A stretch of 64,000 bases of DNA from an uncultured Methanosarcinales archaeon (GTDB taxonomy: Archaea > Nanobdellota > Nanobdellia > Woesearchaeales > DATDXC01): the NCBI GenBank assembly GCA_964510025.1, contig CAZDZV010000004.1:611-64610 (forward strand), read 5' to 3'. A program made the translations under genes and the position numbers. A model generated the notes under the pieces. The model did no database searches and had not been told where the DNA came from. It worked only from the letters and a program-made list of their open reading frames with translations. Positions 1,790 to 43,092 of this stretch are shown one piece after another. Numbering within the stretch: position 1 is the first letter of the stretch; every line of letters starts with the position of its first letter.

Positions 1790-1856
1790 TGTTACTATCT
1801 AAACAAAATGTTTTTAAATAGCTCTGATTCTAGCTTCTGAAAGCAGGTGAAAATCT

Positions 1857-8284: not shown

Positions 8285-8302
8285 GATCTCACCTTTGGAT
8301 TT

Positions 8303-11519: not shown

Positions 11520-11553
11520 CAGTTCACCTCTTTTTAGACAAAAATGGAGATTA

Positions 11554-12723: not shown

Positions 12724-12745
12724 GCTGATGTATCTGACCAGGACA

Positions 12746-15686: not shown

Positions 15687-15687
15687 T

Positions 15688-16875: not shown

Positions 16876-16947
16876 TTTTTACCTCCTTTTTGTCTGGACT
16901 CGCCAAACATATAATTCCTCTCTAGAATTATGTATATAAATATCTTT

Positions 16948-18192: not shown

Positions 18193-18236
18193 TTTCTCTG
18201 ATTATTCAACTTTTCTTTATAAATATTTTTATAGAA

Positions 18237-18908: not shown

Positions 18909-19133
18909 AGGAATCTCACCCTATTTATAAAAATTGCCGTGCGGGTGATGCAGTTTTTCACCACCATTTTGGGACGGATTTCTCGACGCAAATTTCAAAA
19001 AATTTATAAATCAGTGAAAAATTGAACCGTATAATATACGATTTACGGCGATCGAGACGCTACCAAAAACTGATTCCGCAGCGAGAATTTCTTTCTTAGA
19101 TGATTTTATTGAATATAGACGGAGGGATATAAG

Positions 19134-20444
19134 ATGAGACAAGCAGTGCAGTATGCAAAGTTTAGCAACTATGGTTTGAGCCAGCCAGATAGAAGTGTAA
19201 TGGGTACACATGGACAGTTAGTAGCTGGCACAGCTTTTGCTGATATAAGGGCGCAAGCCTTGCGTTTTTCACCCGATGAGAGGGTGGAAATGCTGAACAG
19301 GCCTTACGATCCAAAGATTTCAGCAGGCCTTTGGTTCTGGTTTGGCCAGCCATCCAGATTCCATGGGAACTACAAGCATTTTCAGGATCCTGAAAAAATG
19401 GACTGGCTTGCCCAAAGGGTCGTGGAGATGTCCAAATATGGGCTTAAGGCAGTTGAAGCCCATGAGCCTTGGGAGATAAATCCTGGCAATCTAGATTGGT
19501 ACAAAAGAATAAGAGAAGAAGCTGGAGTTGTCGTATCAGTTATTGCCGGTATAGGCGGAGATTTCAGGGCGACAGATGCAAGGCACGGCACCACATCAAG
19601 CCCTATTGGAGAGGTAAGGGATAAATATGCAACCCATACTGTAGATCAGCTGGAACTGGTGAAAAGGCTCTCTGAAGAACAGGGTCACCCTATCGTTGCA
19701 GTTTGTTGGCCGGGGATTGATGGATATACATACCCGATAGGAACTGATTTTTTTGATATGTGGGACAGGTTTGAAGCTGCTTTGGCAGAGGCAATGGACC
19801 GTGTTCCAGGTGTTCGTGTGGCTATTGAACCCAAGCCATATGAGCCAGCTATGAACAACATATGGAGGCACACTCCTAATGGGATGATCATGGCAAGGAA
19901 TGTGGAAGCCAGGCTAAGGGATCCAGTCAATATCGAATTACTGGCGCAGGGCCACGCATTGGTGGGATTAAATCCAGAGATAGGTCACGTGAAGATGGGA
20001 ATGGAAGATGTGCCATATGCATATGCCTCTGTGCTTCGGGACGGCAGGTTAGCACACACGCATATCAACGCGCAGCCAGCTGCTAATTTTGACCAGGACC
20101 TTAATGCTGGCGTTACCGGCTGGGAAGACATCGTCGGCCTTTTATATGTGGCCAGGATGTACGGATACAATGGATTCTTTGGCATCGACATAAATCCAGA
20201 GAAGCAGCCGGTTGAAGCCGCTATCGCGCATAACATCAACGCAATAGTGCATGCAAACGAAATAGTGAGCAACATGGACCATGGAAGAGTTCTTCAGTCA
20301 TACCATCGGCCCGATCAGTTCCAGGGATCGATTGAAGATGCTGTCCTAAGGGCAAGAGCTCGGGGTATGGACCCAGCAAAGCTAATACCTCAGGAAGTTG
20401 TACAGGAACTAGAGCAAAGACAAGTGCCTTGGGCTAAAGAATAA
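19134..20444 (+). CDS. Sugar isomerase of the xylose-isomerase-like TIM-barrel family (xylose/L-rhamnose isomerase-like)
   Basis: 'VRVAIEPKPYEP' matches the xylose-isomerase-family 'IEPKPxEP' motif. 436 aa. SD 'ggaggga' upstream. Confidence 0.6.
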   Translation: MRQAVQYAKFSNYGLSQPDRSVMGTHGQLVAGTAFADIRAQALRFSPDERVEMLNRPYDPKISAGLWFWFGQPSRFHGNYKHFQDPEKMDWLAQRVVEMSKYGLKAVEAHEPWEINPGNLDWYKRIREEAGVVVSVIAGIGGDFRATDARHGTTSSPIGEVRDKYATHTVDQLELVKRLSEEQGHPIVAVCWPGIDGYTYPIGTDFFDMWDRFEAALAEAMDRVPGVRVAIEPKPYEPAMNNIWRHTPNGMIMARNVEARLRDPVNIELLAQGHALVGLNPEIGHVKMGMEDVPYAYASVLRDGRLAHTHINAQPAANFDQDLNAGVTGWEDIVGLLYVARMYGYNGFFGIDINPEKQPVEAAIAHNINAIVHANEIVSNMDHGRVLQSYHRPDQFQGSIEDAVLRARARGMDPAKLIPQEVVQELEQRQVPWAKE

Positions 20445-20460
20445 TTTTTTTCCTTTTTTT
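20443..20460 (+). terminator. T-rich tract after the isomerase gene
   Basis: 'tttttttcctttttttac' immediately after the stop, consistent with an archaeal oligo-T terminator. Confidence 0.2.
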
Positions 20461-20488
20461 ACAAAAGAGGTAACCTAGGGGTGAGAAT

Positions 20489-21550
20489 ATGGTAGTGATA
20501 GCAGAAGAATATGATTGGAAGAGTTTTGCACGACAGGATACTGTCCGGACTTTCCGCTTGGCCAACCAGAGACAGGGGGGCATATCTGTATTCCTGACGA
20601 ATTTTGGGCCAACTGTCGTCAGGATCCTTGGTGTTGATGATAAGGGGCAACTGGAAGACCTCCTTCTGGGATACAGCACAGTTGAGGGATATCAGGAAGA
20701 CAGCTCCTACCAGGGAAGAATTGCTGTGGGCAGGGTAGCCAACAGGATTGGCAATGCAGCTTACAATGATCCCCACTCTCGAGAAAGAGTGAGGTTGCCG
20801 GCTAACGACGGGCCGCATACGCTCCATGGCGGTCCGAAGGGATGGAGCAGCCAGACATGGGATGTGGACAGCTATGCCCAGGGAAGCACCTCTGCAGCCA
20901 TAAGGTTCTCTTATCATTGCAACCATATGGAAGACGGATTTCCAGGAGATGTCGTAGCCTGGGTGACGGTGGAACTGACAAAGGATAATGAGCTTAGGTT
21001 CAGCTACATCCTGAACAATGAACAGGATCCATTCTGCCCGACGCCTGTCAATCTCACATTCCATGGCTATTTCAACCTTAACGGAGGCAATACAACTATA
21101 CATAATCATTTTCTCAGGACCAATGCTGACAGGGTGCTTCCGGTGCAAGACCTGATCCCCACCGGTGCGATCGCAGCTGTCGGTCCGATAGAGTACGGAA
21201 GATATGATTTCAGGGATGGCAGGGAGATAGGCGATGAAAAATGGTTTAAAGGACAAGGCTATGACAACTGCCTTGTGTTCCCTGATGGAGAACAGGGCAA
21301 AGCAGAGCTGTGGTCTCCATCAACAGGAAGAAGAGTAACAATGACGACAGACCAGCCGGCTGTTCAGCTTTATACAGGGTTTTTTCTGGAAGCTCCTTTC
21401 AGGCAGTTCCAGGGTGTCTGCCTTGAGCCGCAGCAGCTTGTTGATGCTGTAAACCATCCAGAATGGTGGGACCGGTTTGGAAATCCGTTTGTTGAGCCAG
21501 GAGCAGTATACAGTCACACCACAACCTATAAGTTTGAAGTCAAGAAATAG
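20489..21550 (+). CDS. galM: Aldose 1-epimerase (galactose mutarotase)
   Basis: 'VANRIGNAAY...PHTLHGGPKGWSSQTWDV' resembles the mutarotase NR/HGG motifs. 353 aa. Confidence 0.8.
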   Translation: MVVIAEEYDWKSFARQDTVRTFRLANQRQGGISVFLTNFGPTVVRILGVDDKGQLEDLLLGYSTVEGYQEDSSYQGRIAVGRVANRIGNAAYNDPHSRERVRLPANDGPHTLHGGPKGWSSQTWDVDSYAQGSTSAAIRFSYHCNHMEDGFPGDVVAWVTVELTKDNELRFSYILNNEQDPFCPTPVNLTFHGYFNLNGGNTTIHNHFLRTNADRVLPVQDLIPTGAIAAVGPIEYGRYDFRDGREIGDEKWFKGQGYDNCLVFPDGEQGKAELWSPSTGRRVTMTTDQPAVQLYTGFFLEAPFRQFQGVCLEPQQLVDAVNHPEWWDRFGNPFVEPGAVYSHTTTYKFEVKK

Positions 21551-21557
21551 ATGTAAT

Positions 21558-22721
21558 ATGAACACAGGAGATATTGCTCGACTATTAACTGAAGGAGAGG
21601 ATCTTTTTAGGAGACGCAAGCATCCTGTACAGCTTAGACCACCCAAAAGAGGACCGCATATCATAATAAGCCCTGAGCTGTCAGCCAAGGTCATGGCCAT
21701 GTCTCCTGCAGAGGAATCAGAGAGTCCTTTTTTCGTTAGCCCCGATGCGATCAGGAAGCCGGATCTGGCAAGGCCATATCATCCTGAAGGAGGCCACAGG
21801 TGGTGGCCGCTTCCAGAAGGCCAGAAAGGCTGGTCACTATACTTTCCACAGGGCACAACCGATTTTACCATGGAAAACTGGAGAGTCCCCCACAGCTTTG
21901 ATAAGGCAGCATTTCAGATTACAGAACAAGACATTGGTAGCGCAAAGCTTAGGGCTTTTATCAGTATGATTAACTCGATGGGAACCAATTTTGATACTAT
22001 AGTCGACCTGGATTACAGGATGCTCGCCTGTCCTGATGGTTGTGCTACATCCGCCATGCTTGCTGAAGATGTTAAGCATGTAGGCTACTCCCAAAAAATA
22101 AAATTCACCAATGATGGAAGACAACCCTGGAATTCAGAATATGGGATGATCGCCCCTTGGAGCATGGCCATGCTGCGTTCTGGCGAGCAAGCATGGATAG
22201 TCATGCCTACCCGGCGTGGAAGAGGTGATGAGATTGTGGATTATGGTATGGGCACTTCTGGAAATGGGGAAGTTCCGTCCTCCAGGTTTTTACTAAGGGA
22301 CGATTATGCGCTTATGAAAGCTGACGGAAGATACAGGGGAAAGAAAGGCCTTAGGCCGCATATATCAACTGGCTCTATTGCTGCAATTGATCTGGAAAGA
22401 GGCTGGCTTACAGTGATGCATGTTCCTGTAAGCAGGGCCGGAAGGTATCTGGACAATAGATGGGAGCCTGAAACCCGCTACCAGGGAACAGCCATAGACT
22501 GCTACAATGACAGTGGAGACATCGCAGCCGGAGGAAAGGAAAGCATGTTTGAGATCGAGGGGGTATGCCCTGTAAGGACTATCTCCCCCGGAAATAGCTT
22601 GTCCTTTACAGTCAAGCTTCATCATTTTCAGCTTACAGATGCAAGCAATATTGGGGTTTTGTACGAGGTCCTTAGGAATCTTGCAGGCGTCAACCTAAAC
22701 AGGGAACAATACAGGGCATAG
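21558..22721 (+). CDS. Hypothetical protein (387 aa) within sugar cluster
   Basis: Start set at the ATG right after the galM stop; the longer ORF-track start overlaps galM. No motif recognised. Confidence 0.45.
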   Translation: MNTGDIARLLTEGEDLFRRRKHPVQLRPPKRGPHIIISPELSAKVMAMSPAEESESPFFVSPDAIRKPDLARPYHPEGGHRWWPLPEGQKGWSLYFPQGTTDFTMENWRVPHSFDKAAFQITEQDIGSAKLRAFISMINSMGTNFDTIVDLDYRMLACPDGCATSAMLAEDVKHVGYSQKIKFTNDGRQPWNSEYGMIAPWSMAMLRSGEQAWIVMPTRRGRGDEIVDYGMGTSGNGEVPSSRFLLRDDYALMKADGRYRGKKGLRPHISTGSIAAIDLERGWLTVMHVPVSRAGRYLDNRWEPETRYQGTAIDCYNDSGDIAAGGKESMFEIEGVCPVRTISPGNSLSFTVKLHHFQLTDASNIGVLYEVLRNLAGVNLNREQYRA

Positions 22722-22722
22722 A

Positions 22723-23823
22723 ATGAAAAGAGCACCAGGAAGGATAGAGTTCATAGGGAACCATACTGACTACAATGGTGGCTGGGTGATAGCTGCAGCC
22801 ATAGACGCATACATCACAGCAAAAGCAGCGGCAAGAGATGATAACAGGATCTCCCTTGCCTCCAGGGCTCTGGATTCAGTGGTAGAGGTGCCGTCAGATA
22901 TCCTTGATGCAGCGCCAAAAGATATCCAGGCGAGGCTGGATGGGGATCTGAGATGGACCCGCTACCCCATCGGTGTTGCCTATTTTATGAGGCAGGCAGG
23001 AGCAGATATCCGTGGATTTGACATCGTCTTTGACAATACCCTGCCCCCCAATTCAGGCCTTTCGTCCTCAGCAGCGCTGGAGGTCTCAACATTGATGGAG
23101 CTGAAAACACTGTTTCCTTTTGACATGACACTGGAGCAGGCGGCGTTGCTCTGCCAAAGGGCAGAAAACGACATAGCTGACGTCCCCTGCGGCAACATGG
23201 ACCAGTTCGCCAGCCTTAATGGCGGATTGACCTATCTCGACTGCAGAACATTGGCCTATGAATCACTCCAGCTTCCGTCTGAATGGATGCTTGCCGTGCT
23301 GAACACAGGAGTCATGCACAACAACGAGGCCAAGGAAGGCTATCCTGCCAGAAGAAAGGAATGCTTCGAAGCTGCAGCCGCGCTTGGAGCAAAAGCCCTG
23401 AGAGATGCTGATATGGGATTGCTGGCATTTCATAAGGAGGATATGGGTGAGGCTAATTACAGGAGGGCCCGTCATGTGATCGGTGAGAACAGCCGGGTGC
23501 ATGAGGCAAGAGCAGTGCTCAGGTGGCATGGTCCCCTGGAAGAAAGATACAGAAGGCTTTATCATCTTATGAGGGCCTCTCATGAAAGCTCAAGGGATGA
23601 TTTCCAGAACAGCTGTAGAGAACTGGATGTCATGGCAGACATATGCTGGAGCAGAGGATTGGCAGCCAGGTTGTCTGGTGGGGGGTTTGGAGGGGCAGTT
23701 GCAGTAGTGCTGCCTGCTGCAAGGCAGCAGGAACTGTCAAGGATAGTCAAGGACTTCAATGCAGCTACAGGGGGCAATGCAACATCAGCAGTCTACAGGG
23801 TAGCGCAGGGAGCGTACAGGTGA
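22723..23823 (+). CDS. galK: Galactokinase-family GHMP sugar kinase
   Basis: 'GRIEFIGNHTDYNGG' matches the galactokinase signature (GR-x-N-LIGEH-x-DY). 'PPNSGLSSSAALEVS' matches the GHMP ATP motif. Confidence 0.85.
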   Translation: MKRAPGRIEFIGNHTDYNGGWVIAAAIDAYITAKAAARDDNRISLASRALDSVVEVPSDILDAAPKDIQARLDGDLRWTRYPIGVAYFMRQAGADIRGFDIVFDNTLPPNSGLSSSAALEVSTLMELKTLFPFDMTLEQAALLCQRAENDIADVPCGNMDQFASLNGGLTYLDCRTLAYESLQLPSEWMLAVLNTGVMHNNEAKEGYPARRKECFEAAAALGAKALRDADMGLLAFHKEDMGEANYRRARHVIGENSRVHEARAVLRWHGPLEERYRRLYHLMRASHESSRDDFQNSCRELDVMADICWSRGLAARLSGGGFGGAVAVVLPAARQQELSRIVKDFNAATGGNATSAVYRVAQGAYR

Positions 23824-23827
23824 TAAT

Positions 23828-25324
23828 ATGGTAGCAAATATACTGGCGATCGATCCAGGAGCGACGAATACAAAAGGCGTACTAAGGCGATACTCAAGAA
23901 CAGGAGATATAAGGCCGGATGTCGTCAGTAGCTATTCAGCTCCTTCAGCAACGGCCATCCAGGATGGCATTAGATGCGAAACAGCACCAGAAGCTATGTT
24001 TAAGATCCTAGCCGAGCTGCCTGAAAAAGAGAGGCAGAGGCTGAGGGCTATTGTCATCGCATCTCATGGAGCTACAGAAATCCCGATAGACAATTCAGGA
24101 AATCCTGTCTTTGGAGTTGTCTCGTATGATAATGGATGCTTCGATGAACATCAAGGAGAATTTTTTCAACGTTTCGGCAGCCCGGAAGACCAATACCTTA
24201 TGACCGGCACAGCCAGCTTCCCGAAAGGGATCAATGCTGCCCAGCAGTTGTATTTCTGGGAAAAGGAAAGGCGCGCATGGTTCGAGACAGCCGCGCATCT
24301 GCTCCCATTATCATCATACATGGCTTTCCTCCTGACAGGGAACAGGTTTACCTCTCATACGCATACACGGAACCATGCTTATCTTGAGAATACAGATGGT
24401 AGCTGGAGCAGGCCTGTGGTTGCTATGGGCTGGCAGAGGCTCTTCCCTGGGTTCAGAAGGTCCTTTGAGCCATATGGCACAGTAAGCAGGGCGGTTGCTG
24501 CTGGCTATCAGCTGCCTGCAGATTGCATGGTGGTGGCTGCCGGCCATGACACTTCTGTTGCGTCCCTCCTTGCCCCCAACTATATCAACACAGGCACATG
24601 GATATGCAACACCTGCGTCGGAGCTGACCGTGAGCTGACAGCTGAGATGGCAGGAATTGGCCTGGTGGTCAATGCAGACGTATACGACAAAAACCTTATG
24701 ACAATCATGGCAAGGCTTGGCCAGACAAGGGACGCTTACAGGGCAATGTACGGCAACAACCTTCCGGAGGATATTGCCTTCAAGGGGCTTAATTTCCTTG
24801 AGCCTGAGATAGTCCCGCTGGCTTTTATGGAGGGTGTAGGGGTATATCCTTCTTTGCCAGCTGCTGAGATACCCCTCTCCTTGAGGGGCAGCGGTGAAAA
24901 GCTGATCCACTCGCTATCGTTCTCTATCGCGATCGCAGAGGCTCTTTCGTCCATTATGACAAGCGACCCTGATGTGCCTTTAGGCAAAACACTAGGCGAC
25001 CTTTTGACAGAAGGCTACAGCGCCAAAGATGTTGTTATCGGAGGAAACTTTGTGAGGGATCTTGATGATGGAAGGATGGGAACATTTACAGAATTTTTCA
25101 GGAGGCTATACCCTGGAAAAGTCGAAAGATTCACCTTTGCTGAGCCTACAAGCTTTGCAGCCCACATATGTGCAGTGGCTGCTCTTGAAGGTACAACACC
25201 AGCAGAGTTGTCTGGGCGCATTGTAGCTCCGACAGAAGACATAAGCTATGGTAATCATGATATAGACCTAGCCCAAAGGGTAAGGGCTTGGGAAGCAGAC
25301 CTGGAAGATGTTGTGGAGGGATAA
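23828..25324 (+). CDS. FGGY-family carbohydrate kinase (rhamnulokinase/fuculokinase-like)
   Basis: 'ILAIDPGATNTKG' N-terminus and 'VVAAGHDTSVASLLA' like the RhaB 'GSHDTASAV' motif. 498 aa. Confidence 0.7.
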   Translation: MVANILAIDPGATNTKGVLRRYSRTGDIRPDVVSSYSAPSATAIQDGIRCETAPEAMFKILAELPEKERQRLRAIVIASHGATEIPIDNSGNPVFGVVSYDNGCFDEHQGEFFQRFGSPEDQYLMTGTASFPKGINAAQQLYFWEKERRAWFETAAHLLPLSSYMAFLLTGNRFTSHTHTRNHAYLENTDGSWSRPVVAMGWQRLFPGFRRSFEPYGTVSRAVAAGYQLPADCMVVAAGHDTSVASLLAPNYINTGTWICNTCVGADRELTAEMAGIGLVVNADVYDKNLMTIMARLGQTRDAYRAMYGNNLPEDIAFKGLNFLEPEIVPLAFMEGVGVYPSLPAAEIPLSLRGSGEKLIHSLSFSIAIAEALSSIMTSDPDVPLGKTLGDLLTEGYSAKDVVIGGNFVRDLDDGRMGTFTEFFRRLYPGKVERFTFAEPTSFAAHICAVAALEGTTPAELSGRIVAPTEDISYGNHDIDLAQRVRAWEADLEDVVEG

Positions 25325-25326
25325 GA

Positions 25327-25743
25327 ATGCCAGGATTGGTTGATATGCATCCAAAGGTTGGGATAAGGCCTACTATCGACGGCAGGCTAAGGGATGAGGT
25401 TTCTGTGAAAGAAACAGAAGCATGGGCTCAGGCAGCAGCCGAGTTCATTAGACAAAATGTGACATATACTGATGGCGAGCCAGTGGGGGTTTTGGTATCA
25501 CATGTAATAGGCAATGCAGAAGAAGCTGCAAGAGCAGCCAGCCATTTCAGCAGGAATGATGTGGGTGTGGAGATAACAGCGACCGACAAATGGTGCTATG
25601 GTACTGAAACGGTCAGTATGGATCCAGTTACGCAGAAAGCGCTGCTCCCGAAAAACGGCACAGAAAGACCAGGAAGGAGCAGACTACCGCGCCTGCAGCA
25701 CACTGGGGCCGTTGTACAGGCCCATCCAGCATTAAGATGGTAG
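25327..25743 (+). CDS. L-fucose isomerase N-terminal-domain-like ORF (139 aa), possibly a truncated gene remnant
   Basis: 'VGIRPTIDGR', 'VGVEITATDKWCYGTETVSMDP' and 'KNGTERPG' match remembered N-terminal FucI motifs ('IGIRPVIDGR', 'CWCYGSETIDMDP', 'FNGTERPG'). The ORF ends ~450 aa short of a full-length FucI. Confidence 0.45.
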   Translation: MPGLVDMHPKVGIRPTIDGRLRDEVSVKETEAWAQAAAEFIRQNVTYTDGEPVGVLVSHVIGNAEEAARAASHFSRNDVGVEITATDKWCYGTETVSMDPVTQKALLPKNGTERPGRSRLPRLQHTGAVVQAHPALRW

Positions 25744-27137
25744 CAATAAAAAAAATAGCAAGTTCACTGCGCAAAGAGCCCGGAGCTATGGGCTTTGCTG
25801 GAGGCAGTATGTCAGGATTTTGGCAGTCTGCTGTGGCGATACAGACAACAGGCGGATACATAGGGGCATCCTATGGCACCCAAAACCCGCTCTGGTGCTC
25901 CAAACAGCTGTATGGTGCGCTGCAGGGACAGCATGGTCCGGTAAAAGGCGAAAGGCTTGCAAACGAGCTCATGTATGCCCTCACAAAAGAGGTGCTGACC
26001 GCTCTTGCTGAGCAAGATATCTCAGCGCCAGAGGAAGCCATGCTTAGGGCTATTTCAGACCCTGCTATAGCCGATACGGTAAGGGCGTTTTACAGAAAGA
26101 ACGGCCTTCAGGGAGAGCTGCCCTTCACATATATTCTGAATGCTGCGGTAGCGCCTGACCTTGCTGTGTGGATGGCAACTTCTCAGGCAAGAGGCATAGA
26201 CAATTTTAATGACCTTACAGGACATAGGCTGTCGCACAGGGCCGAAAGGGTGGCTGTAATACCTCTTGTCTCATACGGCATACGTGAAGCCCAGATAGAA
26301 GATCTGATTGACCAGGGTTACAGGATATTCAAGACAAAGATGGGCGCCTATGATGATAGATATGAAAAAGGTTCAGTTGAGGATTTCATGAACATGATGA
26401 AAGTTGACAGAGAGAAGCTGCAGCTTGTGTCCAGGCTGACAGAATCCCTTGAGACCGACCTCACAGAAGATGGCCGGGTGCCGCTGTACCTTGACTTCAA
26501 CGGCCGGATCCCCAGCGACGATAGAGGGGTCAATCTCCTGCAAGCCTATATGGAGGTTGCGGCAAGCGTAAATGCCCTTGACAGGATAATAGTGGTCGAG
26601 GAGCCTTTTGAGGATATGAAATCAATGGGCAGCCAGTTTGATGTATTCAGGGATTTCATGGACAGATATGGTGTTACTATAGTAGCAGATGAATGCGCGC
26701 ATTCAGCTGAAGATGTGAGGGAACTGCTGGCTTTAGGGTGCAGGGGCTTTGCGCTTAAGCCAGCTGCAAAGACGCTGACTGAAACACTGAGGATGATAGA
26801 TATCATAACCGGGCACAACGACGCCAACCCAGATGACAACGCCTATTGCTTCTGCGCAGACCTCACAGTTGTCCCATCACTGGTGGAATGGAACCTGCAT
26901 GTCCAGGCAAGGCTTCCGCCATGGCCAGGGCTTGCTGAAGGGGTTAGGATGCTTGAATCAAACTGGATGCAGCACTATCTCTACAGAAATAGGTTGCCTG
27001 AAAGGTATCCCGCATCAGAAGTTGCATCCCCTGAAGGAGGTGTTTTCCTGCCGACAGCTGAGTGGTTCAGGACAGGGGGCAGGATCTTTCATCCTGGCGG
27101 ACAAATGCTGGAAAAAATTATGGCCACCTTACACTAA
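25737..27137 (+). CDS. Enolase-superfamily (MR-subgroup-like) putative sugar-acid dehydratase
   Basis: KxK 'FKTKMG', 'YLDFNGR' (DxN), 'IIVVEEPFE', 'TIVADECAHS' and 'FALKPAAKTLTETLRMIDI' occur in the order typical of MR/MLE barrels. The true start may be a later Met (around 25788 or 25809). Confidence 0.45.
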   Translation: MVAIKKIASSLRKEPGAMGFAGGSMSGFWQSAVAIQTTGGYIGASYGTQNPLWCSKQLYGALQGQHGPVKGERLANELMYALTKEVLTALAEQDISAPEEAMLRAISDPAIADTVRAFYRKNGLQGELPFTYILNAAVAPDLAVWMATSQARGIDNFNDLTGHRLSHRAERVAVIPLVSYGIREAQIEDLIDQGYRIFKTKMGAYDDRYEKGSVEDFMNMMKVDREKLQLVSRLTESLETDLTEDGRVPLYLDFNGRIPSDDRGVNLLQAYMEVAASVNALDRIIVVEEPFEDMKSMGSQFDVFRDFMDRYGVTIVADECAHSAEDVRELLALGCRGFALKPAAKTLTETLRMIDIITGHNDANPDDNAYCFCADLTVVPSLVEWNLHVQARLPPWPGLAEGVRMLESNWMQHYLYRNRLPERYPASEVASPEGGVFLPTAEWFRTGGRIFHPGGQMLEKIMATLH

Positions 27138-27139
27138 AA

Positions 27140-28284
27140 TGCAGAAGTATAACCTATTCACACCGACCAGCCATGTTGCAGTTACAGCTGAGGCAGGCAT
27201 GCTTACTGCCAGGTTTGGCGATATCGAGCCTTTTGCTGTCGCCCCGTGGGTTGGGGAAGAACTTCCGGATTCACTGCCACCTTTGATAAGGTATCTCAGA
27301 GGGGACTTTGATACGATATGCGGTGCTGGGCCAGAAGAAGGCTACATGCCGCATGGAGAGCCTGCCAATGGCACCTGGCGGCTGATTACCCGGAAAACCG
27401 CAGGCAATGTTGCATTCATGCATCTCCACATGCACACCACAAAACCCGAAGGTGCTGTTACGAAGACTGTTGTCTTGGCAGATGAGCCTGTTGTCTACAC
27501 ACAGACAAGATATGTGATGGATGCCCGGATACCATATGGCCACCATGCCATAGTCCGCATTCCAGAAGGCCATTCTGCAGCAGATGTTTCTACATCAGAT
27601 TTTGTCTTTGGCATGACCTATCCTGAAAGGTTCGATGGCGATGGCGGCACTCCCAGACTGGCAGTCGGCCAGGAGGTGATGTTAGCTGGGCAGACAATAG
27701 AGCTGCCTTTGTCAGATGGAGCCTATGTGCCCGTAGATCAATATTATCACCGGAAAGGGCATGATGACCTGTTTATGCTAAGCCATGACCCGAACGCAGA
27801 TTTCGCATGGACTGCTATGACAAACCGTAAAGAAGGCTATGTCTTCTTCACGCTTAAGGATCCAGGGACCCTGGCATCCACGCTTTTCTGGCTTTCCCAT
27901 TACGGTAGAAACCAGTCTCCATGGGGGGTTGACGGCCAACCAAGGCACGGATTTGTTATGGGGATAGAGGATGTTACAGCCTTCTTCTGCATGGGTGTCG
28001 AAGCCTCGCTAGGAAGAAATCCAAGGCATAGGCGATTATATGAAAGGCTGCAGGAGTTAGGGGTGAAAACCTCTGCAGCATTCTCAGCATCTGTGCCAAG
28101 GCCGATAAATTACATAATGGGTGCTGTTCCGGTAGCTGATGGGTTCACGGGGGTTAAGGCTATCACAGCAGATGGAGCGTCCATCACAATCATAGACAAG
28201 GGGGATACAGAACCAACAAGGGTTCCTGTATGCACCTCATGGCTTAAAGACGGAAATCTGGATGATATAATCGGAGGTAATTAA
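27140..28284 (+). CDS. Hypothetical protein (381 aa) within sugar cluster
   Basis: Start at the first ATG after the upstream stop; the ORF-track N-terminus overlaps the preceding gene. No motif recognised. Confidence 0.45.
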
Positions 28285-28285
28285 G

Positions 28286-29866
28286 ATGAGAGATGATATT
28301 GCATTGGGGGGAGATTTTAGTTCTACTGGTGTCACTGTCAGGGCTGTGAATATGGGGACTATGGAGATTCTTGACCGTCATCAGATAGCTGTGGATGAGA
28401 TTGCAGAAAGGATGGGTTACCGAACCCATGAAGGCATGCTGGTCGGGCCAGGAGGAGAATACACTCTGCCTGGCGAGGTGGTTGTGGAGGGTATTGAGAC
28501 TGCTATGGATATGGCTGCGCAACAAAGCAGTTTCCGGCCTGATGATGTTGTTGCGATGTCATGGTCGTTCCAGGGGCATCATACTGATTGGTGGACAAGG
28601 GCAGCTATGGATATTCTCGCAGACCCTGATCCGGATGTGCGCTTGGCAGAGCAGCTGAAAGGAAAATTTAGCTGTGATGGCCCTACATGGAAAGACGCTT
28701 CAACAGCTGCGGAGACAAGGCAGCTAAATGAGGCCATGGCAGCTCATGGCAGGCCGGTGATTGTTATGGCTGAAAGGTTCCCTGGCCCGCAGATATTCAA
28801 AAGAGCAGGCACCCCTGCATACGAAGACGCTGCGATGATAACATGCGGCAATGCAACTGCATCATATGTCATAACAGGCATCCCGTCCTTCTCTGGTCCA
28901 GGAGACGCTGCTGCATCCGGCTTCGTAAATCTTGAGACACTTGCCCTGGACCCAGAATCCATGAGTTTGATCGCTGCAGACCTGCATACCAAGATCAGGC
29001 AGGTCACTCATTCAGGATCGGAGATAGGTAAAGCATCCCCGTATTTCCAGAGCAAGGGCTTCACAAACCTGAGGTTATATGTAGGTGACCAGGACAATAT
29101 AAAGTCAGGAGCATATCTCTTGTTTGGGCCTGATGTGATACAGATCAGCCTTGGAACATCATATACTATTTCAATCGTCTCAGAAAGATATCTGCCTGGG
29201 TTTGAAGGCAATTTCGCAAGCAATGATGCTGAATTTCCCTATTTGTTGCTGCTCTGCAAGAGGATGGGATCAGACAGCATCTCAGAGGTCTTAGCCATGC
29301 ATCATTACAGAAAAACAGATTTTGACCGTGTAAGCAGGTCGCTGAGGGCAACTCATGTCGGCAATGACGGAAGGATGGCTTTGCCTTGGTTCCAGCCAGA
29401 AATCATTCCATATGCCCCTCATGCACCAGGTATGATACGCGAGGGCTACTCAAGGCCAAGCTTCCGCCATGACATACGGGCAGTGATAGAGGGCAATTCT
29501 GCATCTATGCGTCTTGCCACTGAGCGCTACCTAACTCAGGTAGAAAGCATGCACGCTTTATCATTTGCAGGAGGAGCTGCTCAGAACCCGGACATAACAC
29601 AGATATGGATCAATATGTTCGGGCTGCCGGGGTATTTCATGGAGCATGTTGAGGATGCTGCAGCGATAGGGGCTGCATTGACAGCTATGGCTGACCATCA
29701 GAACAATCATGGACAGCAGACTACACTATCATCTGTTGTGCAGAGATTCCTATCGGTAAATAAGCCCAGGGTGGTGCACCCAGATATGGATGCTGCTGGG
29801 ATCTACATAAAAGAATATCTACCAATGTTTGAACGATTTGAAGGAATGCATGCGCAGGGGAGATAA
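28286..29866 (+). CDS. FGGY-family carbohydrate kinase (xylulokinase-like)
   Basis: 'VIQISLGTSYTI' resembles the FGGY N-domain signature. 'FAGGAAQNPDITQIWINMFGLP' resembles the C-domain signature. Confidence 0.7.
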   Translation: MRDDIALGGDFSSTGVTVRAVNMGTMEILDRHQIAVDEIAERMGYRTHEGMLVGPGGEYTLPGEVVVEGIETAMDMAAQQSSFRPDDVVAMSWSFQGHHTDWWTRAAMDILADPDPDVRLAEQLKGKFSCDGPTWKDASTAAETRQLNEAMAAHGRPVIVMAERFPGPQIFKRAGTPAYEDAAMITCGNATASYVITGIPSFSGPGDAAASGFVNLETLALDPESMSLIAADLHTKIRQVTHSGSEIGKASPYFQSKGFTNLRLYVGDQDNIKSGAYLLFGPDVIQISLGTSYTISIVSERYLPGFEGNFASNDAEFPYLLLLCKRMGSDSISEVLAMHHYRKTDFDRVSRSLRATHVGNDGRMALPWFQPEIIPYAPHAPGMIREGYSRPSFRHDIRAVIEGNSASMRLATERYLTQVESMHALSFAGGAAQNPDITQIWINMFGLPGYFMEHVEDAAAIGAALTAMADHQNNHGQQTTLSSVVQRFLSVNKPRVVHPDMDAAGIYIKEYLPMFERFEGMHAQGR

Positions 29867-29869
29867 AAA

Positions 29870-30928
29870 ATGGTGAACGTTCTAGCAGAGCCGGAAGTTA
29901 TAATAGCTGGATTTGGAGATGAATATTCTTATTTTGCAGAAGAGCATCTGGCGTTTCTTGGAGAGAGGAGCATCCCGATCTCCCTGAGATTTGTCAGCTT
30001 TGATGATGATGCCAGGCTCGGATGCCTTGATGGGCTTACCAGAGAGGAGTTCAGCAGACGCACAGCTGCGTTGAAAGAAGCAGGGAAGATCAAGCATGTG
30101 ACCCAACTGACAGCTGATGAGCTTGATAGATATAAAGACATGATGCACCAGCATGGCGTGGGCGTGTGGGATATAGGCTCTGCAGTGGGCAAGCAGTATC
30201 TGGGCGATCCAGCTCATGCAGAGGAATATCAGCGCCAGCAGGAAAATACGATAAGGGTTGCCCATTTCTTTGGGACACCCAGGGTCAGGATGTTTAATTT
30301 CTATCCCGGAAGAAAAGGAGACCTTGCCCGGCCAGGAACCCCACAACGCCAAGAGTATGCACAGATGGCCTTAGGATATATCCAGGACCTGGCTGACCTA
30401 ATGAGAAGGGAAGCCTTGGCCGGCTTTTTAGAGGTCGAGACTGAGCTTCTTGGGCATGACGGGGCTTCCCTGATGGACTTCTGGAAAAAGGTAGGCAGAG
30501 ATAATATCTTTCTTTATTTCGACGGAGCCAACATGGTGAGACAGGATGAGCAAAGGCAGGGATTGTCTTTGCAGACCTACAATGACATGGTTCCTGGCCT
30601 TGGCGGGCTGCATATAAAAGATGCTGTCTACAGCAGACTGGAGCCTGGGCAGTCAAGAGAAGAAGCACCATGGCCTCATGTGCCGGTCGGGCAGGGCGAT
30701 GCTGATTACGAGCTTGTGCTTCAGGATTTCAGGGAGAGGATCCATTCAGTACGGTCCAGGTTGGAACATGCGCGATTGCCCGGGTATGTGGGTGTGGTTC
30801 TTGAGCCGCATCTGAAAGCCCCTGGCCAGTTCGGAGGATTTACTGGTTCATTATACCAGAAAGCCGTAGATGCGCTGGTTGAGCAGTTGGGGATAGCGCA
30901 TATTGGGCATCAGGATCTAGCAAGGTGA
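29870..30928 (+). CDS. Sugar-phosphate isomerase/epimerase (xylose-isomerase-like TIM barrel, AP-endonuclease-2 family)
   Basis: Length and scattered E/D/H metal-ligand pattern ('FLEVETELLGHDG') resemble that family. Weak call. Confidence 0.4.
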   Translation: MVNVLAEPEVIIAGFGDEYSYFAEEHLAFLGERSIPISLRFVSFDDDARLGCLDGLTREEFSRRTAALKEAGKIKHVTQLTADELDRYKDMMHQHGVGVWDIGSAVGKQYLGDPAHAEEYQRQQENTIRVAHFFGTPRVRMFNFYPGRKGDLARPGTPQRQEYAQMALGYIQDLADLMRREALAGFLEVETELLGHDGASLMDFWKKVGRDNIFLYFDGANMVRQDEQRQGLSLQTYNDMVPGLGGLHIKDAVYSRLEPGQSREEAPWPHVPVGQGDADYELVLQDFRERIHSVRSRLEHARLPGYVGVVLEPHLKAPGQFGGFTGSLYQKAVDALVEQLGIAHIGHQDLAR

Positions 30929-30932
30929 CTAT

Positions 30933-32174
30933 ATGGTTCTGAATGTAGCTTTAGCAGGTGTTAAGCCGTGTGGCGTGTCAGCTGCTCATATGGACGCGAT
31001 CGCCAGCCTGCAGGCTGAAGGCCTGGTAGAGCTGGTTGCGCTGGCAGAGATGAATCTCAGCAACCTCCATCCAGAAAGATGGAAAGGCCCGGCAAGGGCG
31101 CTGCTTGAGGGTGATGCTCGGCTGTATGATGACTTCAGCAATATGATGCAGCATGAGCGTGTAGATGCTGTCACAATAGCAACACCCCACCATCTCCATG
31201 TGCCTATGGCTGCTGAAGCTCTTGAAAATGGGTCCCATGTTTTTCTGGAAAAGCCGCCTGCACTGACCATGGGCAGCGGAAGAGAGCTTTTGTCTTCAGG
31301 CAAGACAGTAGGAGTCAACTATATGTATGCTGCTGCTGAATCTGCGCTAGAGCTTGCAGCAAGGATAGCTGACCTTGGAGAGCTTACCCATATCGTAGGC
31401 ATCGGCAAGTGGATGAGATGGAAAGAGTACTTTTCTAGAGCATCCTGGGCTGGCAAAGCATTTGTTGATGATGTTCCTGTACTGGACGGCTGCCTATTCA
31501 ACCAGTTTGGCCATCTGCTCAACCAGATCCTCATGTTTTCCGGTGCATCGCCTCAGGCTGTAAGAGCCGAGCTGTACAGGGGGCACACCTCGACAGAGAT
31601 GGAAGACACAGCCTGCTTAAGCATAAGGACAGATGGGCCTGAACTTCTGTTATACTGCACTGTCTGCCATACACAGGAGGAGCCGTATGAGGTCTATATT
31701 TACGGCTCAAAAGCTAGCGCTCACTGGACTCCTGGCAGATATGAGATCAGAGACTTAGAGGGCCGGACAATAGAAAAAAAGACATTCAAAGAGACATGGG
31801 CCTCTCTTATCCAGAGGAACTACAGGGACTTCATAGCGGCAGTGCAGGAGCAACGAGAGCCGATTGTAGCTTTAGAAAGAGGATTGCTGCCGACCCTCAT
31901 AGTAAACGCAGCCTATGTTTCTGCAGGCTATAGCATAAGGCAGGTGCCTGAGCACGCCATGGTTGAGCCCTACCAGGCAGAAAAACCAGGCACTACAGCC
32001 GGCATCCAGACAGACAAGGTTACAGTTGTCCCTATCCGCGCAGTTGGCCAGCTGATAGATGATGCATCCAAGATGCGTAGGATGTTCAGCGAGATGTCTG
32101 GCTTATCATGGGGAAGGCAAACAGGATATGTATCAATATCTGGTCTTGAATTTGATCCAGGGAGGTTAAGATGA
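30933..32174 (+). CDS. Gfo/Idh/MocA-family NAD(P)-dependent oxidoreductase
   Basis: 'VDAVTIATPHHLHVPMAAEALENGSHVFLEKP' is the classic Gfo/Idh/MocA 'ATP-x-x-H...EKP' segment. Confidence 0.75.
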   Translation: MVLNVALAGVKPCGVSAAHMDAIASLQAEGLVELVALAEMNLSNLHPERWKGPARALLEGDARLYDDFSNMMQHERVDAVTIATPHHLHVPMAAEALENGSHVFLEKPPALTMGSGRELLSSGKTVGVNYMYAAAESALELAARIADLGELTHIVGIGKWMRWKEYFSRASWAGKAFVDDVPVLDGCLFNQFGHLLNQILMFSGASPQAVRAELYRGHTSTEMEDTACLSIRTDGPELLLYCTVCHTQEEPYEVYIYGSKASAHWTPGRYEIRDLEGRTIEKKTFKETWASLIQRNYRDFIAAVQEQREPIVALERGLLPTLIVNAAYVSAGYSIRQVPEHAMVEPYQAEKPGTTAGIQTDKVTVVPIRAVGQLIDDASKMRRMFSEMSGLSWGRQTGYVSISGLEFDPGRLR

Positions 32175-33439
32175 CGATAGATGTCACAGTAGGCGGGCTT
32201 GCATGCTTAGATGTTGTGCCAGACATATCCCGAAGCAGGCAGGTAGTAGAACAGATATTTGGCATTGATGCCTCAAACGTGAAGCCTGGGCAGCTATATT
32301 TCCTTGATAAGCCCATACCTGCTGAGAAAGCAACCCTTTTCTGGGCACTTGTAGGGGACGCAGTAGTAAATGCAGGCGGCATTGTCTCTAACACAGGCGG
32401 CTCTTTGCACAGGCTGGGTTTTGATACCAGACTGATGACAAGGTTAGGGATGGATACAATCGGTGAAAGGATAGCTGATATCTATACGCAAGCTGGCTAT
32501 TCTGCTCAGTTTAGCAGAGAAGGCTCGACATCCTTCACTGTAGTTGCAAATCTGCCTGCTGGAAGATCATTCTTCCATTTTCCCCTGAGGCAATGGGGCT
32601 ATGACGATATTGACTTCGATGTTGTCGGAAACTCCAAGTTTTTTTTGGCTGGCTACCCCAACCTTATACAAAGCCTTTGGCAGGGTAATGGAGAAGGGCT
32701 GGGTAGAATATTAACAGAGGCTAAAAAAAGGGGGGCAACCACCATGGTTGACTTCTCCAACATAGACCCGTCCAAGCCGCCCAGCCAGGGTGATTGGGCA
32801 TCTATCCTGAGGAACTACACAATGGATATCTTTTTTCCAAGCGCAGAAGAAGGCATGTACATGCTGATGCCTGATAGGTACAGGCAGGTATGCGGCCAAA
32901 GGGACAGCTATAACAGCACCAGGCCGGAAGATGAGCATAAGTCCTTTGACAGCTTTGTCACATACGACGATGTCGATGAGCTCACAGGAATCCTTATCAG
33001 GCAGTATGGTGTATCCATAGCAGGCGTTAAGATAGGTGAAAAGGGATTCTACCTTAAGACAAGAAAGCAGCCTGTTGTACATGACCAGCTCGGCAGGGGA
33101 TTAGAAGGGTTTAGAGAATATGGAAGGGAATATTATTTTCCAGCTTTCCAGCCGAGGCAGATAATGGGCACAACAGGGGCAGGAGATGCACTTATTGCGG
33201 GTTTTCTTGGCGGGATGAGCAGCCGCTATGAGCTGGAAGAAGCTGGCTTGTGCGCAGTCATGGTTGCAGCAGAATGCCTTGAAGCAGCTGATTCCACGAG
33301 CAGCATCAGGAGATGGGTAGCTACCCAGGACAGGATAGTGCATACAGGTCCGCTAGCTGCCCTTGATCTGCCCGGTTCTTTTTCAGCCAAGAAGATCAAC
33401 AACAAGGGCTATCACGCATATCATAAAGATGTACGATAA
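32171..33439 (+). CDS. PfkB/ribokinase-family carbohydrate kinase
   Basis: C-terminal 'GTTGAGDALIAGFLGG' is the PfkB 'DTxGAGD' signature. ATGA overlap with the upstream gene. Confidence 0.8.
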   Translation: MTIDVTVGGLACLDVVPDISRSRQVVEQIFGIDASNVKPGQLYFLDKPIPAEKATLFWALVGDAVVNAGGIVSNTGGSLHRLGFDTRLMTRLGMDTIGERIADIYTQAGYSAQFSREGSTSFTVVANLPAGRSFFHFPLRQWGYDDIDFDVVGNSKFFLAGYPNLIQSLWQGNGEGLGRILTEAKKRGATTMVDFSNIDPSKPPSQGDWASILRNYTMDIFFPSAEEGMYMLMPDRYRQVCGQRDSYNSTRPEDEHKSFDSFVTYDDVDELTGILIRQYGVSIAGVKIGEKGFYLKTRKQPVVHDQLGRGLEGFREYGREYYFPAFQPRQIMGTTGAGDALIAGFLGGMSSRYELEEAGLCAVMVAAECLEAADSTSSIRRWVATQDRIVHTGPLAALDLPGSFSAKKINNKGYHAYHKDVR

Positions 33440-34643
33440 TTTCCAGACAGCAATTGCAGCAGCTGCATATATTACCTCTAGGATTGCTTCATCTTCTCCG
33501 GTCGCATTGCAAGACAAGAGGACATTAACGATTGGCTCTAAGAGGATATATCTCCCTGAGCTTGACGGCGCTTCAAGGCATGTCGTCGATGTAGAGGATA
33601 TAGTCCTGAGAGTAACTAGTAACCACACTTTCGAGGTTGATGATTACCGAGATGATTACAGGCCAGCTGAGAAGGTAAGAAGGGCTCTTGCAAGGACCGG
33701 CTTCACTCCCCGATCAAGATTCAGCCGACGTCATGCGAGGAATCTTGAGAGATATGGCTATCTTTTTGACGAGCAAAGGTGGCACCGCCATCTTGAGCAT
33801 ATAGTAGAGCATAATCCTGAAGCAGAGCCTCTTGCCAAAGCTGCCCATGGCTATGATATCACAATGGTAAGCCAGGCATATATTGATATGCTTATCATAA
33901 GGGAGGGCTTCCTGCCCAAGCTGGGAAGGGCTGCGCTGGTTGCGGGCGCCGGAGCAGCTGCAGGAGCCGGTCTGGCAGCATTGCACCATATAAGCCCGGC
34001 AGTGCAACAGCTATGGGAGCATTATGTGGATCTGCTCCATTTCAGCGAATTTAGCTCGTATTGGGCAAATATGGGCGTAAGAGCAGCAGCCAACACCGCA
34101 ACTGTGCTTGCTTCATTCCTTTTGGGAGATATTTGCGCGCAGTATATAGAGGGCAGAGGCTTTGACAGCAGACGCTTCGCAAATACAGCAAGGACAACAA
34201 ACAAATATGGGATTGAATTTACAGCTGTCTATGAGCTTCTTAACATGATGCCAAAAGCCTTGCTAGGCAGCGAAGCCCTTGGCTCTCTTGCAAAGGCAGT
34301 AGTTGATGTTGTCGGCTACGGGTGCAGCATCGTCCATCCAAGGCATGTCTATCTTATGTCTCAGGAAAAGCCGGATTGGTTGTGGGGGCATTTCAGGTAT
34401 GTCCGCTCCATACAAGCTGCGCTTAAGGACAGGAAGCTCAGGAAAAGATGGTGGATGATGAACAAGGGAGCGATGTTCTGGATCCCTTTCCAGACCTGGA
34501 ACAGGGTTGCTAATGCGCCTGAGGAGGCTGTATTCTATGTTTCATTGGCAATGCCTGTCTGGACCGTATTCATGTCTTTGGTGTCCAACCAGAAAAGGGA
34601 TCTGCTCGAGCTTGAGCAGGCGATGGCTCTGTTAGATAGGTAA
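33429..34643 (+). CDS. Hypothetical protein (~405 aa), Ala/Gly-rich hydrophobic segments
   Basis: Long ORF overlapping the pfkB end by 11 nt. No recognised motif. Confidence 0.4.
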   Translation: MYDNFQTAIAAAAYITSRIASSSPVALQDKRTLTIGSKRIYLPELDGASRHVVDVEDIVLRVTSNHTFEVDDYRDDYRPAEKVRRALARTGFTPRSRFSRRHARNLERYGYLFDEQRWHRHLEHIVEHNPEAEPLAKAAHGYDITMVSQAYIDMLIIREGFLPKLGRAALVAGAGAAAGAGLAALHHISPAVQQLWEHYVDLLHFSEFSSYWANMGVRAAANTATVLASFLLGDICAQYIEGRGFDSRRFANTARTTNKYGIEFTAVYELLNMMPKALLGSEALGSLAKAVVDVVGYGCSIVHPRHVYLMSQEKPDWLWGHFRYVRSIQAALKDRKLRKRWWMMNKGAMFWIPFQTWNRVANAPEEAVFYVSLAMPVWTVFMSLVSNQKRDLLELEQAMALLDR

Positions 34644-34689
34644 CAAAATCTTTATAAATGAACATTCTGTTCCAGAATATCGTGATACA

Positions 34690-43082: not shown

Positions 43083-43092
43083 CTAGCACCTC

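Follow-up and report, generated by a model that had tools for sequence, protein, structure and literature searches.

What is a 15-kb run of bacterial-looking sugar genes doing between two aspartate-pathway genes of an archaeon, and for how long has it been there? The question is raised by a stretch of 64,000 nucleotides from an uncultured archaeon (contig CAZDZV010000004.1 of assembly GCA_964510025.1; this whole stretch is hereafter called the window). In it, 13 tightly spaced plus-strand open reading frames (ORFs), here named g1 to g13, occupy positions 19134-34643 and are flanked by the divergent genes hom and asd. A first-pass annotation had described 13 co-directional plus-strand genes inserted between hom and asd. 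ORF and family calls upheld their number and orientation, and the phrase is correct as a description of gene order. The reading towards which we lean is that the cluster, with 12 intact genes and a dead one, is an accessory operon restricted to its lineage, that it processes sugars in the cytoplasm, and that it fills a variable slot between hom and asd and is bacterial-looking and long resident.

The hom-asd site in related genomes

The left backbone gene, hom (16948-18192, minus strand), encodes a homoserine dehydrogenase with an ACT domain (Pfam Homoserine_dh, 3.7e-60; NCBIfam PRK06349, 486 bits) and the right one, asd (34690-35703, plus strand), an aspartate-semialdehyde dehydrogenase (NCBIfam asd_B, 387 bits, above cutoff). 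The variable region between them extends from 18193 to 34689 and holds 14 genes, including u223 (18237-18908, minus strand), an orphan ORF of 223 amino acids located between hom and g1. This ORF matched nothing in Pfam or NCBIfam and had no counterpart at related loci. The best homologues of hom (58-73% identity) are named Nanoarchaeota archaeon or Candidatus Woesearchaeota archaeon, and hom is 66-72% identical to its counterparts in Woesearchaeota/Nanoarchaeota MAGs. Other genes of the window code for a LysRS of class I, for KaiC-like ATPases, for a FlaI-like ATPase accompanied by two T2SSF proteins, and for giant Laminin_G_3/DUF2341/VWA proteins. Judged from such genes, the host is a Woesearchaeota-like DPANN archaeon. 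Independent Logan contigs from SRR7048224 and SRR7048225 were 100% identical to the window over 17255-20810, 25632-30703 and 34152-35703, and spanned hom-u223-g1-g2 and g13-asd with 0 mismatches. The window proteins that were tested were all singletons at 90% identity, occurring in a single NCBI contig of 157.6 kb and in the Logan assemblies of these two runs.

What lies between hom and asd truly varies: relatives have 0, 1 or at least 9 genes there, and the window, with 14, has the largest filling known. In GCA_004196315.1 (loci L086/L087), whose asd shares 81.5% and whose hom shares 72% identity with the window genes, the two are direct neighbours in divergent orientation, with a gap of about 205 bp and no gene in it. 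In GCA_004196275.1 (L088/L089; asd 77% identical to the window), the two are separated by one DUF6786 gene, which shares 23% identity with g3. Locus L005 (Logan ERR10503186; hom 71% identical to the window) displayed a cluster that is colinear with that of the window, begins 285 bp from hom and comprises at least nine genes. Loci L091 and L092 carried other genes upstream of hom.

The order of genes in L005 is a TIM barrel of 417 amino acids, a DUF6786 protein, an FGGY kinase (FGGY519), an orphan of 611 amino acids, a homologue of g7, a DUF4432 protein, another FGGY kinase (FGGY527) and a g10-like gene. Identity to the window reached 45% for the DUF6786 protein (g3), 47% for the g7 homologue and 51% for FGGY527 (with g9); it was 27% for FGGY519 (with g5), about 30% over 129 residues for the TIM barrel (with g1) and 28% for the last gene, truncated by the contig end (with g10). 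GalM, GalK and FucI were absent from the L005 cluster. The slot that holds a dead fucI gene in the window (g6, see below) is filled there by the 611-amino-acid protein (L005 8115-9950), for which no Pfam family and only spurious PDB matches were found. This gene was considered as a possible FucI and rejected, not being FucI-like. Likewise, the DUF4432 protein sits at the position of g8. The two correspond by position and fold class only, as hhalign found no link between the g8 family and the L005 DUF4432 protein, nor between DUF6786 and the g8 family.

Relationships among the hom genes bear on the age of the cluster. The hom of L005 is closer to those of the cluster-less L086 (79%) and L088 (76%) than to that of the window (71%). 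By these identities the two cluster-bearing genomes bracket cluster-less ones, which favours an old cluster with later loss. A neighbour-joining tree of hom, a single gene, was star-like. In the comparison of hom-asd synteny advised by the first-pass annotation, the empty site of L086/L087 agrees with an insertion, and the colinear cluster beside the L005 hom speaks against a recent one.

Both flanking genes are of bacterial type, hom matching PRK06349 with its ACT domain and asd scoring 387 bits with asd_B versus 144 bits with the archaeal asd_EA. The aspartate-pathway genes, which are conserved in this archaeal clade, may represent an older bacterial import.

Gene content of the cluster

With the most likely starts of g3, g6, g8 and g13 revised to 21558, 25327, 27139 and 33429, respectively, spacing between genes ranged from -11 to +44 bp, and Shine-Dalgarno-like GGAGG/GGTGA motifs preceded most cluster genes. 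Besides the dead g6, the cluster consists of 12 uninterrupted full-length ORFs of 352-526 amino acids. No cluster enzyme reached an NCBIfam equivalog cutoff. Searches of Pfam and NCBIfam recognised no transporter, aldolase or regulator family among the 13 ORFs, no GalT or GalE in the island, and no family for g8 and g13. The absence of a transporter and an aldolase had already been remarked on in the first pass, most of whose family calls also agreed with Pfam and NCBIfam. The exceptions were a FucI fragment counted as a gene and an enolase-superfamily dehydratase (see below for both). Among the three proteins it had left as unknowns, g8 displayed a galactose-mutarotase fold and g13 remained without a family.

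The first gene, g1 (19134-20444, 436 amino acids), encodes a predicted xylose-isomerase-like, metal-dependent TIM-barrel isomerase related to XylA and RhaI in NCBIfam only (xylA_Arthro 1.2e-14, 54 bits versus a cutoff of 447; RhaI 2.8e-6). It matched PDB xylose isomerases at about 1e-9. Alignment with 1BXB showed that the EPKP, NPE.GH and FDQD stretches are kept; one Asp is replaced by His, and the C-terminal ligand region was unaligned. Its neighbour g2 (20489-21550) is an aldose 1-epimerase, or GalM-type mutarotase (Pfam Aldose_epim, 6.9e-59), scoring 213 bits with galM_Leloir, below the 398-bit equivalog cutoff. The following gene, g3 (21558-22721), codes for a DUF6786 protein (Pfam, 2.7e-57). 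Its single-sequence AF2 model had a pLDDT of 32, its profile matched nothing in the PDB, and a literature search on DUF6786 and DUF4432 returned nothing useful.

The product of g4 (22723-23823) is a GalK-type GHMP anomeric sugar kinase (GalKase_gal_bdg 3.6e-13, GHMP_kinases_N 2e-17), for which the best galactokinase equivalog gave 247 of 499 bits and all were below cutoff. It carries GRIEFIGNHTDYNGG and PPNSGLSSSAA. Its start lies about 20 residues later than that of the profile, and the signature reads GNHTDY (22723-22790). The canonical galactokinase signature reads GEHTDY, the Glu of which contacts galactose, and the replacement hints at an altered sugar specificity. The nearest relative of g4 was 48% identical (L090, in an unrelated gene context) and a named Chloroflexi match 41% identical.

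Two divergent FGGY carbohydrate kinases were found, each with FGGY detected on one domain. The first, g5 (23828-25324; FGGY_N 3.2e-11), was matched best, if weakly, by the models of fuculokinase, xylulokinase and rhamnulokinase (28-39 bits versus cutoffs above 380), with 39 bits versus a cutoff of 471 for fuculo_kin_coli. The second, g9 (28286-29866; FGGY_C 3.6e-12), matched XylB at 6.3e-17, with 61 bits versus a cutoff of 380.

The dead member, g6 (25327-25743), retained Fucose_iso_N1 (7.4e-30) and scored 95-104 bits with NCBIfam fucI models versus cutoffs of 775-850. Its best match was 3A9R (595 amino acids), a solved chain deposited as D-arabinose isomerase, and g6 is also close to L-fucose isomerases. 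In phmmer searches, the frame-0 product aligned to residues 7-123 of this chain and the +1 frame to residues 575-595. The C-terminal piece ends in its native TAA (25733-25735), 1 nt before the ATG of g7, a spacing similar to that at the remaining operon junctions. By this alignment g6 is a fucI pseudogene from which about 450 codons (about 1.35 kb) have been deleted internally, the ends being joined out of frame, and not the FucI gene fragment first annotated. Since both ends of fucI are kept and the native TAA lies 1 nt before the g7 start, a full-length fucI must once have been part of the operon. An independent contig (L002) was identical to the window across the g6 junction.

Gene g7 (25737-27137) encodes a divergent enolase-superfamily enzyme of the muconate-lactonising-enzyme (MLE) subgroup type (MR_MLE_C 7.1e-7). 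Its family comprises 53 members in 5.8e9 proteins, of about 430-466 amino acids and with a long N-terminal region. Residues K199, K201, D253, E288, D318 and K341 were invariant in 26 family members and aligned with the KiKiG, lDgN, lfEqP, aaDEs and niKlm stretches of the 3U9I chain. The family thereby displays the KxK motif (strand 2), the Asp/Glu/Asp metal ligands (strands 3-5) and the second Lys (strand 6) by which the MLE subgroup is defined. The g7 profile matched MLE, dipeptide epimerase and OSBS/NSAR structures, down to 3.9e-7, and a single-sequence search against solved structures found no match. As these profile matches were MLE-subgroup or generic MR/MLE chains, none of them named a sugar-acid dehydratase, the earlier assignment to a dehydratase was not retained.

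The next protein, g8 (27139-28284), belongs to a family so rare that 5.8e9 proteins yielded only 14 homologues. Its AF2 model (pLDDT 87.6, pTM 0.90) matched LSEI_2598, YeaD, Slr1438, GalM and 3TY1 in Foldseek searches of the PDB (E 5.6e-9 to 1e-5, probability 1.00), so that g8 is predicted to fold as a galactose-mutarotase-like beta-sandwich. Residues H72, H136, D210 and E277 are invariant in the family and may have a catalytic role. Exact-protein look-ups with GalK and with the g8 ORF at a longer, since superseded start found nothing.

The end of the cluster begins with g10 (29870-30928), an AP_endonuc_2 (xylose-isomerase-like) TIM barrel (Pfam, 2.1e-15) and a candidate sugar isomerase, epimerase, dehydratase or lyase. 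Gene g11 (30933-32174) encodes a Gfo/Idh/MocA NAD(P)-dependent sugar oxidoreductase (GFO_IDH_MocA 9.5e-15); the models of IolG, levoglucosan dehydrogenase and glycoside 3-dehydrogenase matched it weakly and stayed far short of their cutoffs. The PfkB-family sugar kinase g12 (32171-33439) is unusually long (422 amino acids), PfkB being detected in its C-terminal part only (1.6e-13); it matched PDB sugar kinases at 4e-9 and displayed a TTGAGDA motif. Finally, g13 (33429-34643) is an orphan, possibly a membrane protein. Its N-terminal half is soluble and Kyte-Doolittle analysis revealed four hydrophobic peaks in the C-terminal half (residues 168-186, 219-237, 284-302 and 367-385); no significant family match was recorded, Mpv17_PMP22 having an E-value of 0.06 only.

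Composition, outside relatives and origin

The cluster had a G+C content (GC) of 0.501 versus 0.468 in the other window genes. It further differed from them in Lys (3.1% versus 7.6%), the sum of G, A, R, P and W (32.5% versus 23.2%) and GC at first (GC1, 0.573 versus 0.496) and second codon positions (GC2, 0.440 versus 0.353), and it was lower at third positions (GC3, 0.490 versus 0.556), with Mann-Whitney p < 1e-3 for each of these five measures. The protein-level contrast noted in the first pass was therefore real, although the GC difference was smaller than its estimate of about 54% versus about 47% (50% versus 47% as measured); stretches of the window at 39-42 kb and 45-47 kb also had a GC of 0.52. 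The orphan u223 was cluster-like (Lys 1.8%, GC3 0.47). The L005 cluster proteins were likewise Lys-poor relative to the L005 hom, with a host-like GC3 of about 0.22. Cluster GC3 thus follows each host, being about 0.22 in L005 and about 0.49 in the window, near host values. Silent-site GC of the host combined with a foreign protein composition is the pattern expected after long residence.

The borders of the island also carry archaeal-looking signals. The motif TTTATAAAT occurred six times in the window versus 0.62 expected (positions 1237, 18216, 18923, 19002/19003 and 34651), in all cases in intergenic DNA, at a distance of 15-120 nt before the start of a gene. Of these matches, five, at four sites of which one is palindromic, border the island, lying before hom or u223, u223, g1 and asd. 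The one at 18923-18931 is 15-23 nt upstream of the u223 start and the one at 34651-34659 (plus strand) 31-39 nt upstream of asd. The palindromic ATTTATAAAT (19002-19011, plus strand), about 120 nt upstream of g1, is a candidate archaeal TATA-like promoter element of the operon. Probably TTTATAAAT is the TATA box consensus of this organism; the promoter function of both motifs is putative.

Relatives outside the lineage were sought for about four of the 13 genes, namely g7, g8, fucI and GalK, and those examined are bacterial. For g7, a scan of GTDB found relatives in over 575 genomes, among them Bacteroidota, PVC bacteria and Clostridia, with identities of 29-35%. The sole g8 relative with gene context sits among TonB-receptor, RND and TetR genes, a Gram-negative context. 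No close donor for the cluster was found in 5.8 billion proteins, the best outside identities being 35% for g7 and 48% for GalK, and metagenome contig scans with the g7 subfamily alignment and the g9 alignment returned no relative.

Among 80 bacterial loci with g7 relatives (L006-L085), a Gfo/Idh/MocA gene was adjacent in 49 and an AP_endonuc_2 gene in 21. This association functionally ties g7 to g10 and g11. Genes for SusC/D, sulfatases and fucosidases also occurred around the bacterial g7 relatives. One representative bacterial Gfo/Idh/MocA neighbour displayed a Pfam twin-arginine (TAT) signal, and the window g11 was 21-24% identical to three such bacterial neighbours. In the bacteria, the g7 family, Gfo/Idh/MocA and AP_endonuc_2 form a conserved three-gene module in polysaccharide-utilisation loci. 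A transplanted bacterial operon was considered and dropped, since tblastn of the cluster proteins against the 80 loci gave three weak Gfo matches only. Because these loci hold no other cluster gene, the operon was not imported whole from any sampled bacterium.

Traces of a mobile element were not found either: the 64-kb window contains no tRNA, tmRNA or Rfam feature, no integrase or transposase family was recognised among the ORFs, and no direct repeats beyond chance matches flank the island. The integrase, att target and flanking repeats of an integrative genomic island are thus missing, whereas the atypical composition, patchy site and cross-domain relatives (through g7, g8, fucI and GalK) of a horizontally acquired block are present. 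The horizontal acquisition proposed in the first pass accordingly stands as regards the bacterial relatives and the empty site, but not as a recent insertion. Ancient acquisition followed by differential loss fits better, and the locus is best explained by an old gain of bacterial-type genes that were domesticated, and are partly decaying, in one Woesearchaeal clade.

The backbone around the island is itself stretched. The genes for LysRS, AK, hom, asd, RimK and PurA span about 15-17 kb in L086-L088 and 63 kb in the window (15-3173, 16948-18192, 34690-35703, 56224-57315 and 61369-62625). The contig of one relative with this backbone also carries Ribosomal_S8e and LSM. Three blocks spread the window backbone, namely 3369-16692, the sugar island and 35704-56223, and odd composition was observed in the sugar island only. 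The block at 3369-16692 comprises 12 minus-strand genes, including those for GNAT, biotin carboxylase/BCCP/carboxyltransferase, ABC/FtsX, CARDB, 3-hydroxyacyl-CoA dehydrogenase, amidohydrolase, ThiF and M42 peptidase proteins. Between the M42 peptidase gene and hom, eight overlapping CT-rich repeat units of 36 nt, mostly spaced by 12 nt from start to start (16726-16893), encode a minus-strand Lys-rich ORF of 53 amino acids (16745-16906, KKDNKKDRKKNCKKD...). The block at 35704-56223 holds a methyltransferase, giant surface proteins and a pilus/archaellum-like locus. Two giant minus-strand proteins of 1625 and 1395 amino acids (38205-48227; GC 0.50-0.51, Lys 1.8-3.3%) carry Laminin_G_3, DUF2341 and VWA domains and are likely surface or adhesion proteins of a kind common in DPANN archaea.

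Some single genes resemble the island in composition. A flavin-reductase-like gene (1262-1789) is Lys-poor (2.9%) with low GC3 and lies between those of LysRS and AK, which are adjacent in all four relatives without it. A Methyltransf_32 gene just past asd (35678-36694) likewise has 4.7% Lys and low GC3. Their composition suggests that both are further foreign single-gene insertions. The class-I LysRS itself (15-1199, incomplete because the window begins within it) shares only 34-35% identity with the LysRS that occupies this position in relatives, versus 57-81% for AK, hom and asd; it would be either replaced or unusually fast-evolving.

Proposed function and rival explanations

From gene families and motifs, the following steps can be proposed. 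Scavenged aldoses would be anomerised by the mutarotase-type g2 and g8. One branch would then lead through phosphorylation at C1 by the GalK-type g4. In one or two others, aldoses would be converted to ketoses by the xylose-isomerase-like g1, formerly also by FucI, and the ketoses phosphorylated by the FGGY kinases g5 and g9, g1 pairing with g5 and the former FucI perhaps with g9. An oxidoreductive branch composed of g11, g10, g7 and g12 may act on another sugar, or on a derivative of one. From these branches, sugar phosphates would pass into non-oxidative pentose-phosphate and lower glycolytic reactions encoded elsewhere; in Woesearchaeota, a complete non-oxidative pentose-phosphate pathway is common and carbohydrate metabolism is limited (PMC8421398). 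The deletion of about 1.35 kb would have destroyed the fucose/arabinose isomerase step, and in sister lineages the cluster would have been lost or whittled down. The deoxyhexose or hexose substrate suggested in the first pass is plausible; the only clear fucose gene, g6, is dead.

None of the known systems that were compared is reproduced by the island. Like the fucPIKUA, rhaBADM/RhaI and xylAB operons, it tightly links a mutarotase-type protein, a metal-dependent aldose-ketose isomerase and an FGGY kinase. Unlike them, its components fall below equivalog thresholds, its FucI is dead, a class II aldolase and a permease are missing, and the host is an archaeon; those operons, in turn, have no counterpart of its DUF6786 protein, MLE-type enzyme, GFO oxidoreductase and PfkB kinase. 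In particular, the intact isomerase of about 590 amino acids, the equivalog fuculokinase and the aldolase and permease families of an L-fucose operon were not found. The GalM-type epimerase and the GHMP kinase with a galactose-binding signature recall the Leloir gal operon, but of GalM, GalK, GalT and GalE the last two are absent, GalK is below cutoffs and reads GNHTDY, and the pair is missing from L005.

Adjacency of g10, g11 and g12 parallels that of the same three families in the myo-inositol IolG/IolE(I)/IolC and gut Bacteroides 3-keto-glycoside modules (10.1101/2024.03.25.586180; PMC8121099). The likeness is at family level only, since the island has no IolB/D/J/A or DUF1080, and IolG, IolC and glycoside-3-dehydrogenase models gave 26-49 bits versus cutoffs of 300-750 (IolG 49 of 355, IolC 26 of 300, which sets the island apart from an iol cluster). 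The 3-keto-glycoside cluster consists of two GFO oxidoreductases, a TIM-barrel lyase and a DUF1080 protein, with periplasmic targeting (10.1101/2024.03.25.586180). Here one GFO and one AP_endonuc_2 protein occur without DUF1080, BT_2158_fam reached 37 of 750 bits, and Pfam reported no TAT signal on g11. As to the MLE subgroup, the g7 family keeps the KxK motif, the Asp/Glu/Asp ligands and the second Lys, but is set apart by its long N-terminal region and the lack of a single-sequence match to solved structures.

Gene transfer from bacteria to DPANN archaea followed by differential loss is a general phenomenon. The present case shares with it the bacterial-type metabolic genes in a small archaeal genome and their patchy occurrence among close relatives, and differs by comprising a whole 13-gene operon at a defined backbone site with graded states. 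An accessory sugar-utilisation operon acquired by inter-domain transfer is thus of a known kind, while this combination of genes was not found elsewhere and several of the families in it are very rare and uncharacterised.

Several other explanations account for part of these observations. Very little speaks for an assembly or binning chimera, in which a bacterial fragment would have been mis-joined into an archaeal contig: the contig is metagenome-derived, its proteins are all singletons and the compositional contrast exists, but the SRR7048224 and SRR7048225 contigs cross both borders without mismatch and the same hom-cluster junction recurs in L005, so that this explanation is largely refuted. 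It also appears improbable that the cluster is an eroding, largely non-functional remnant on its way out of a reductively evolving genome. The fucI deletion pseudogene, the empty or single-gene site in relatives and the great divergence of all enzymes from characterised families would suit such a remnant; the 12 uninterrupted ORFs with operon-like spacing, the catalytic motifs conserved in g1, g4, g7 and g12 and the intact orthologues in L005 at 45-51% identity would not. Somewhat less improbable, yet still unlikely, is the recent gain of a ready-made bacterial fucose/rhamnose/galactose island. The empty site in L086/L087, the distinct amino-acid and GC1/GC2 composition and the bacterial relatives of g7, g8, FucI and GalK are all consistent with it. 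Against it stand the colinear cluster found at this site in L005, a genome with a hom nearer to those of cluster-less relatives, and GC3 at host values in both lineages. Bacterial g7 relatives, moreover, lack other cluster genes nearby (80 loci, three weak Gfo matches aside), outside identity peaks at 35% (g7) and 48% (GalK), and the borders display archaeal TATA-like motifs instead of an integrase, tRNA or flanking direct repeat.

A role in salvage is about as doubtful as recent gain. Here, the kinases, notably the GalK-type one acting at C1, would phosphorylate scavenged sugars for nucleotide-sugar and cell-surface glycan synthesis in a host-dependent archaeon. The pairing of mutarotase g2 with anomeric kinase g4, the lack of an aldolase, GalT or energy-yielding step, the giant surface proteins encoded nearby and the limited carbohydrate catabolism of Woesearchaeota (PMC8421398) all point that way. 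The island, however, holds no nucleotidyltransferase or glycosyltransferase, FGGY and PfkB kinases with aldose-ketose isomerases are typical of catabolic entry and not of activation, and the L005 cluster lacks g2 and g4, which are hence not the core.

The long-resident accessory operon, towards which we lean, has its own weak points. Every kinase and isomerase lies far below NCBIfam equivalog cutoffs; the island is devoid of a recognisable transporter, aldolase, GalT/GalE or regulator; and with one gene already dead the pathway may be eroding. Bacterial ancestry was checked in only about four of the 13 genes, with no donor closer than 35-48% identity. The star-like hom tree does not separate loss from repeated gain, the far end of the L005 cluster is lost at the contig end, and identity between the window and L005 is only 27-31% for g1, g5 and g10, so that gene replacement is possible.

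Tentatively, and with less confidence than the accessory operon itself, the core common to the window and L005 could encode an undescribed pathway, built from bacterial parts and limited to a Woesearchaeal clade, by which a rare or modified sugar is broken down. This core comprises the xylose-isomerase-like isomerase, DUF6786, two FGGY kinases, the MLE-type enzyme, a mutarotase-fold protein and the TIM barrel. If so, new catalytic functions would be expected of DUF6786 and of the families of g7 and g8; in any case DUF6786, the g8 family and the enolase-like g7 family are reasonable targets for enzymology. The usual picture of DPANN archaea, Woesearchaeota included, is one of poor metabolism and dependence on partners (PMC8421398). 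An operon with four sugar kinases, two to three isomerase-type TIM barrels and two mutarotase-type proteins would mean that some lineages keep substantial sugar processing or build it from bacterial parts. With 0, 1, at least 9 or 14 genes at a single site, these genomes offer a natural series in which to follow how reduced archaeal genomes gain, ameliorate and lose genes.

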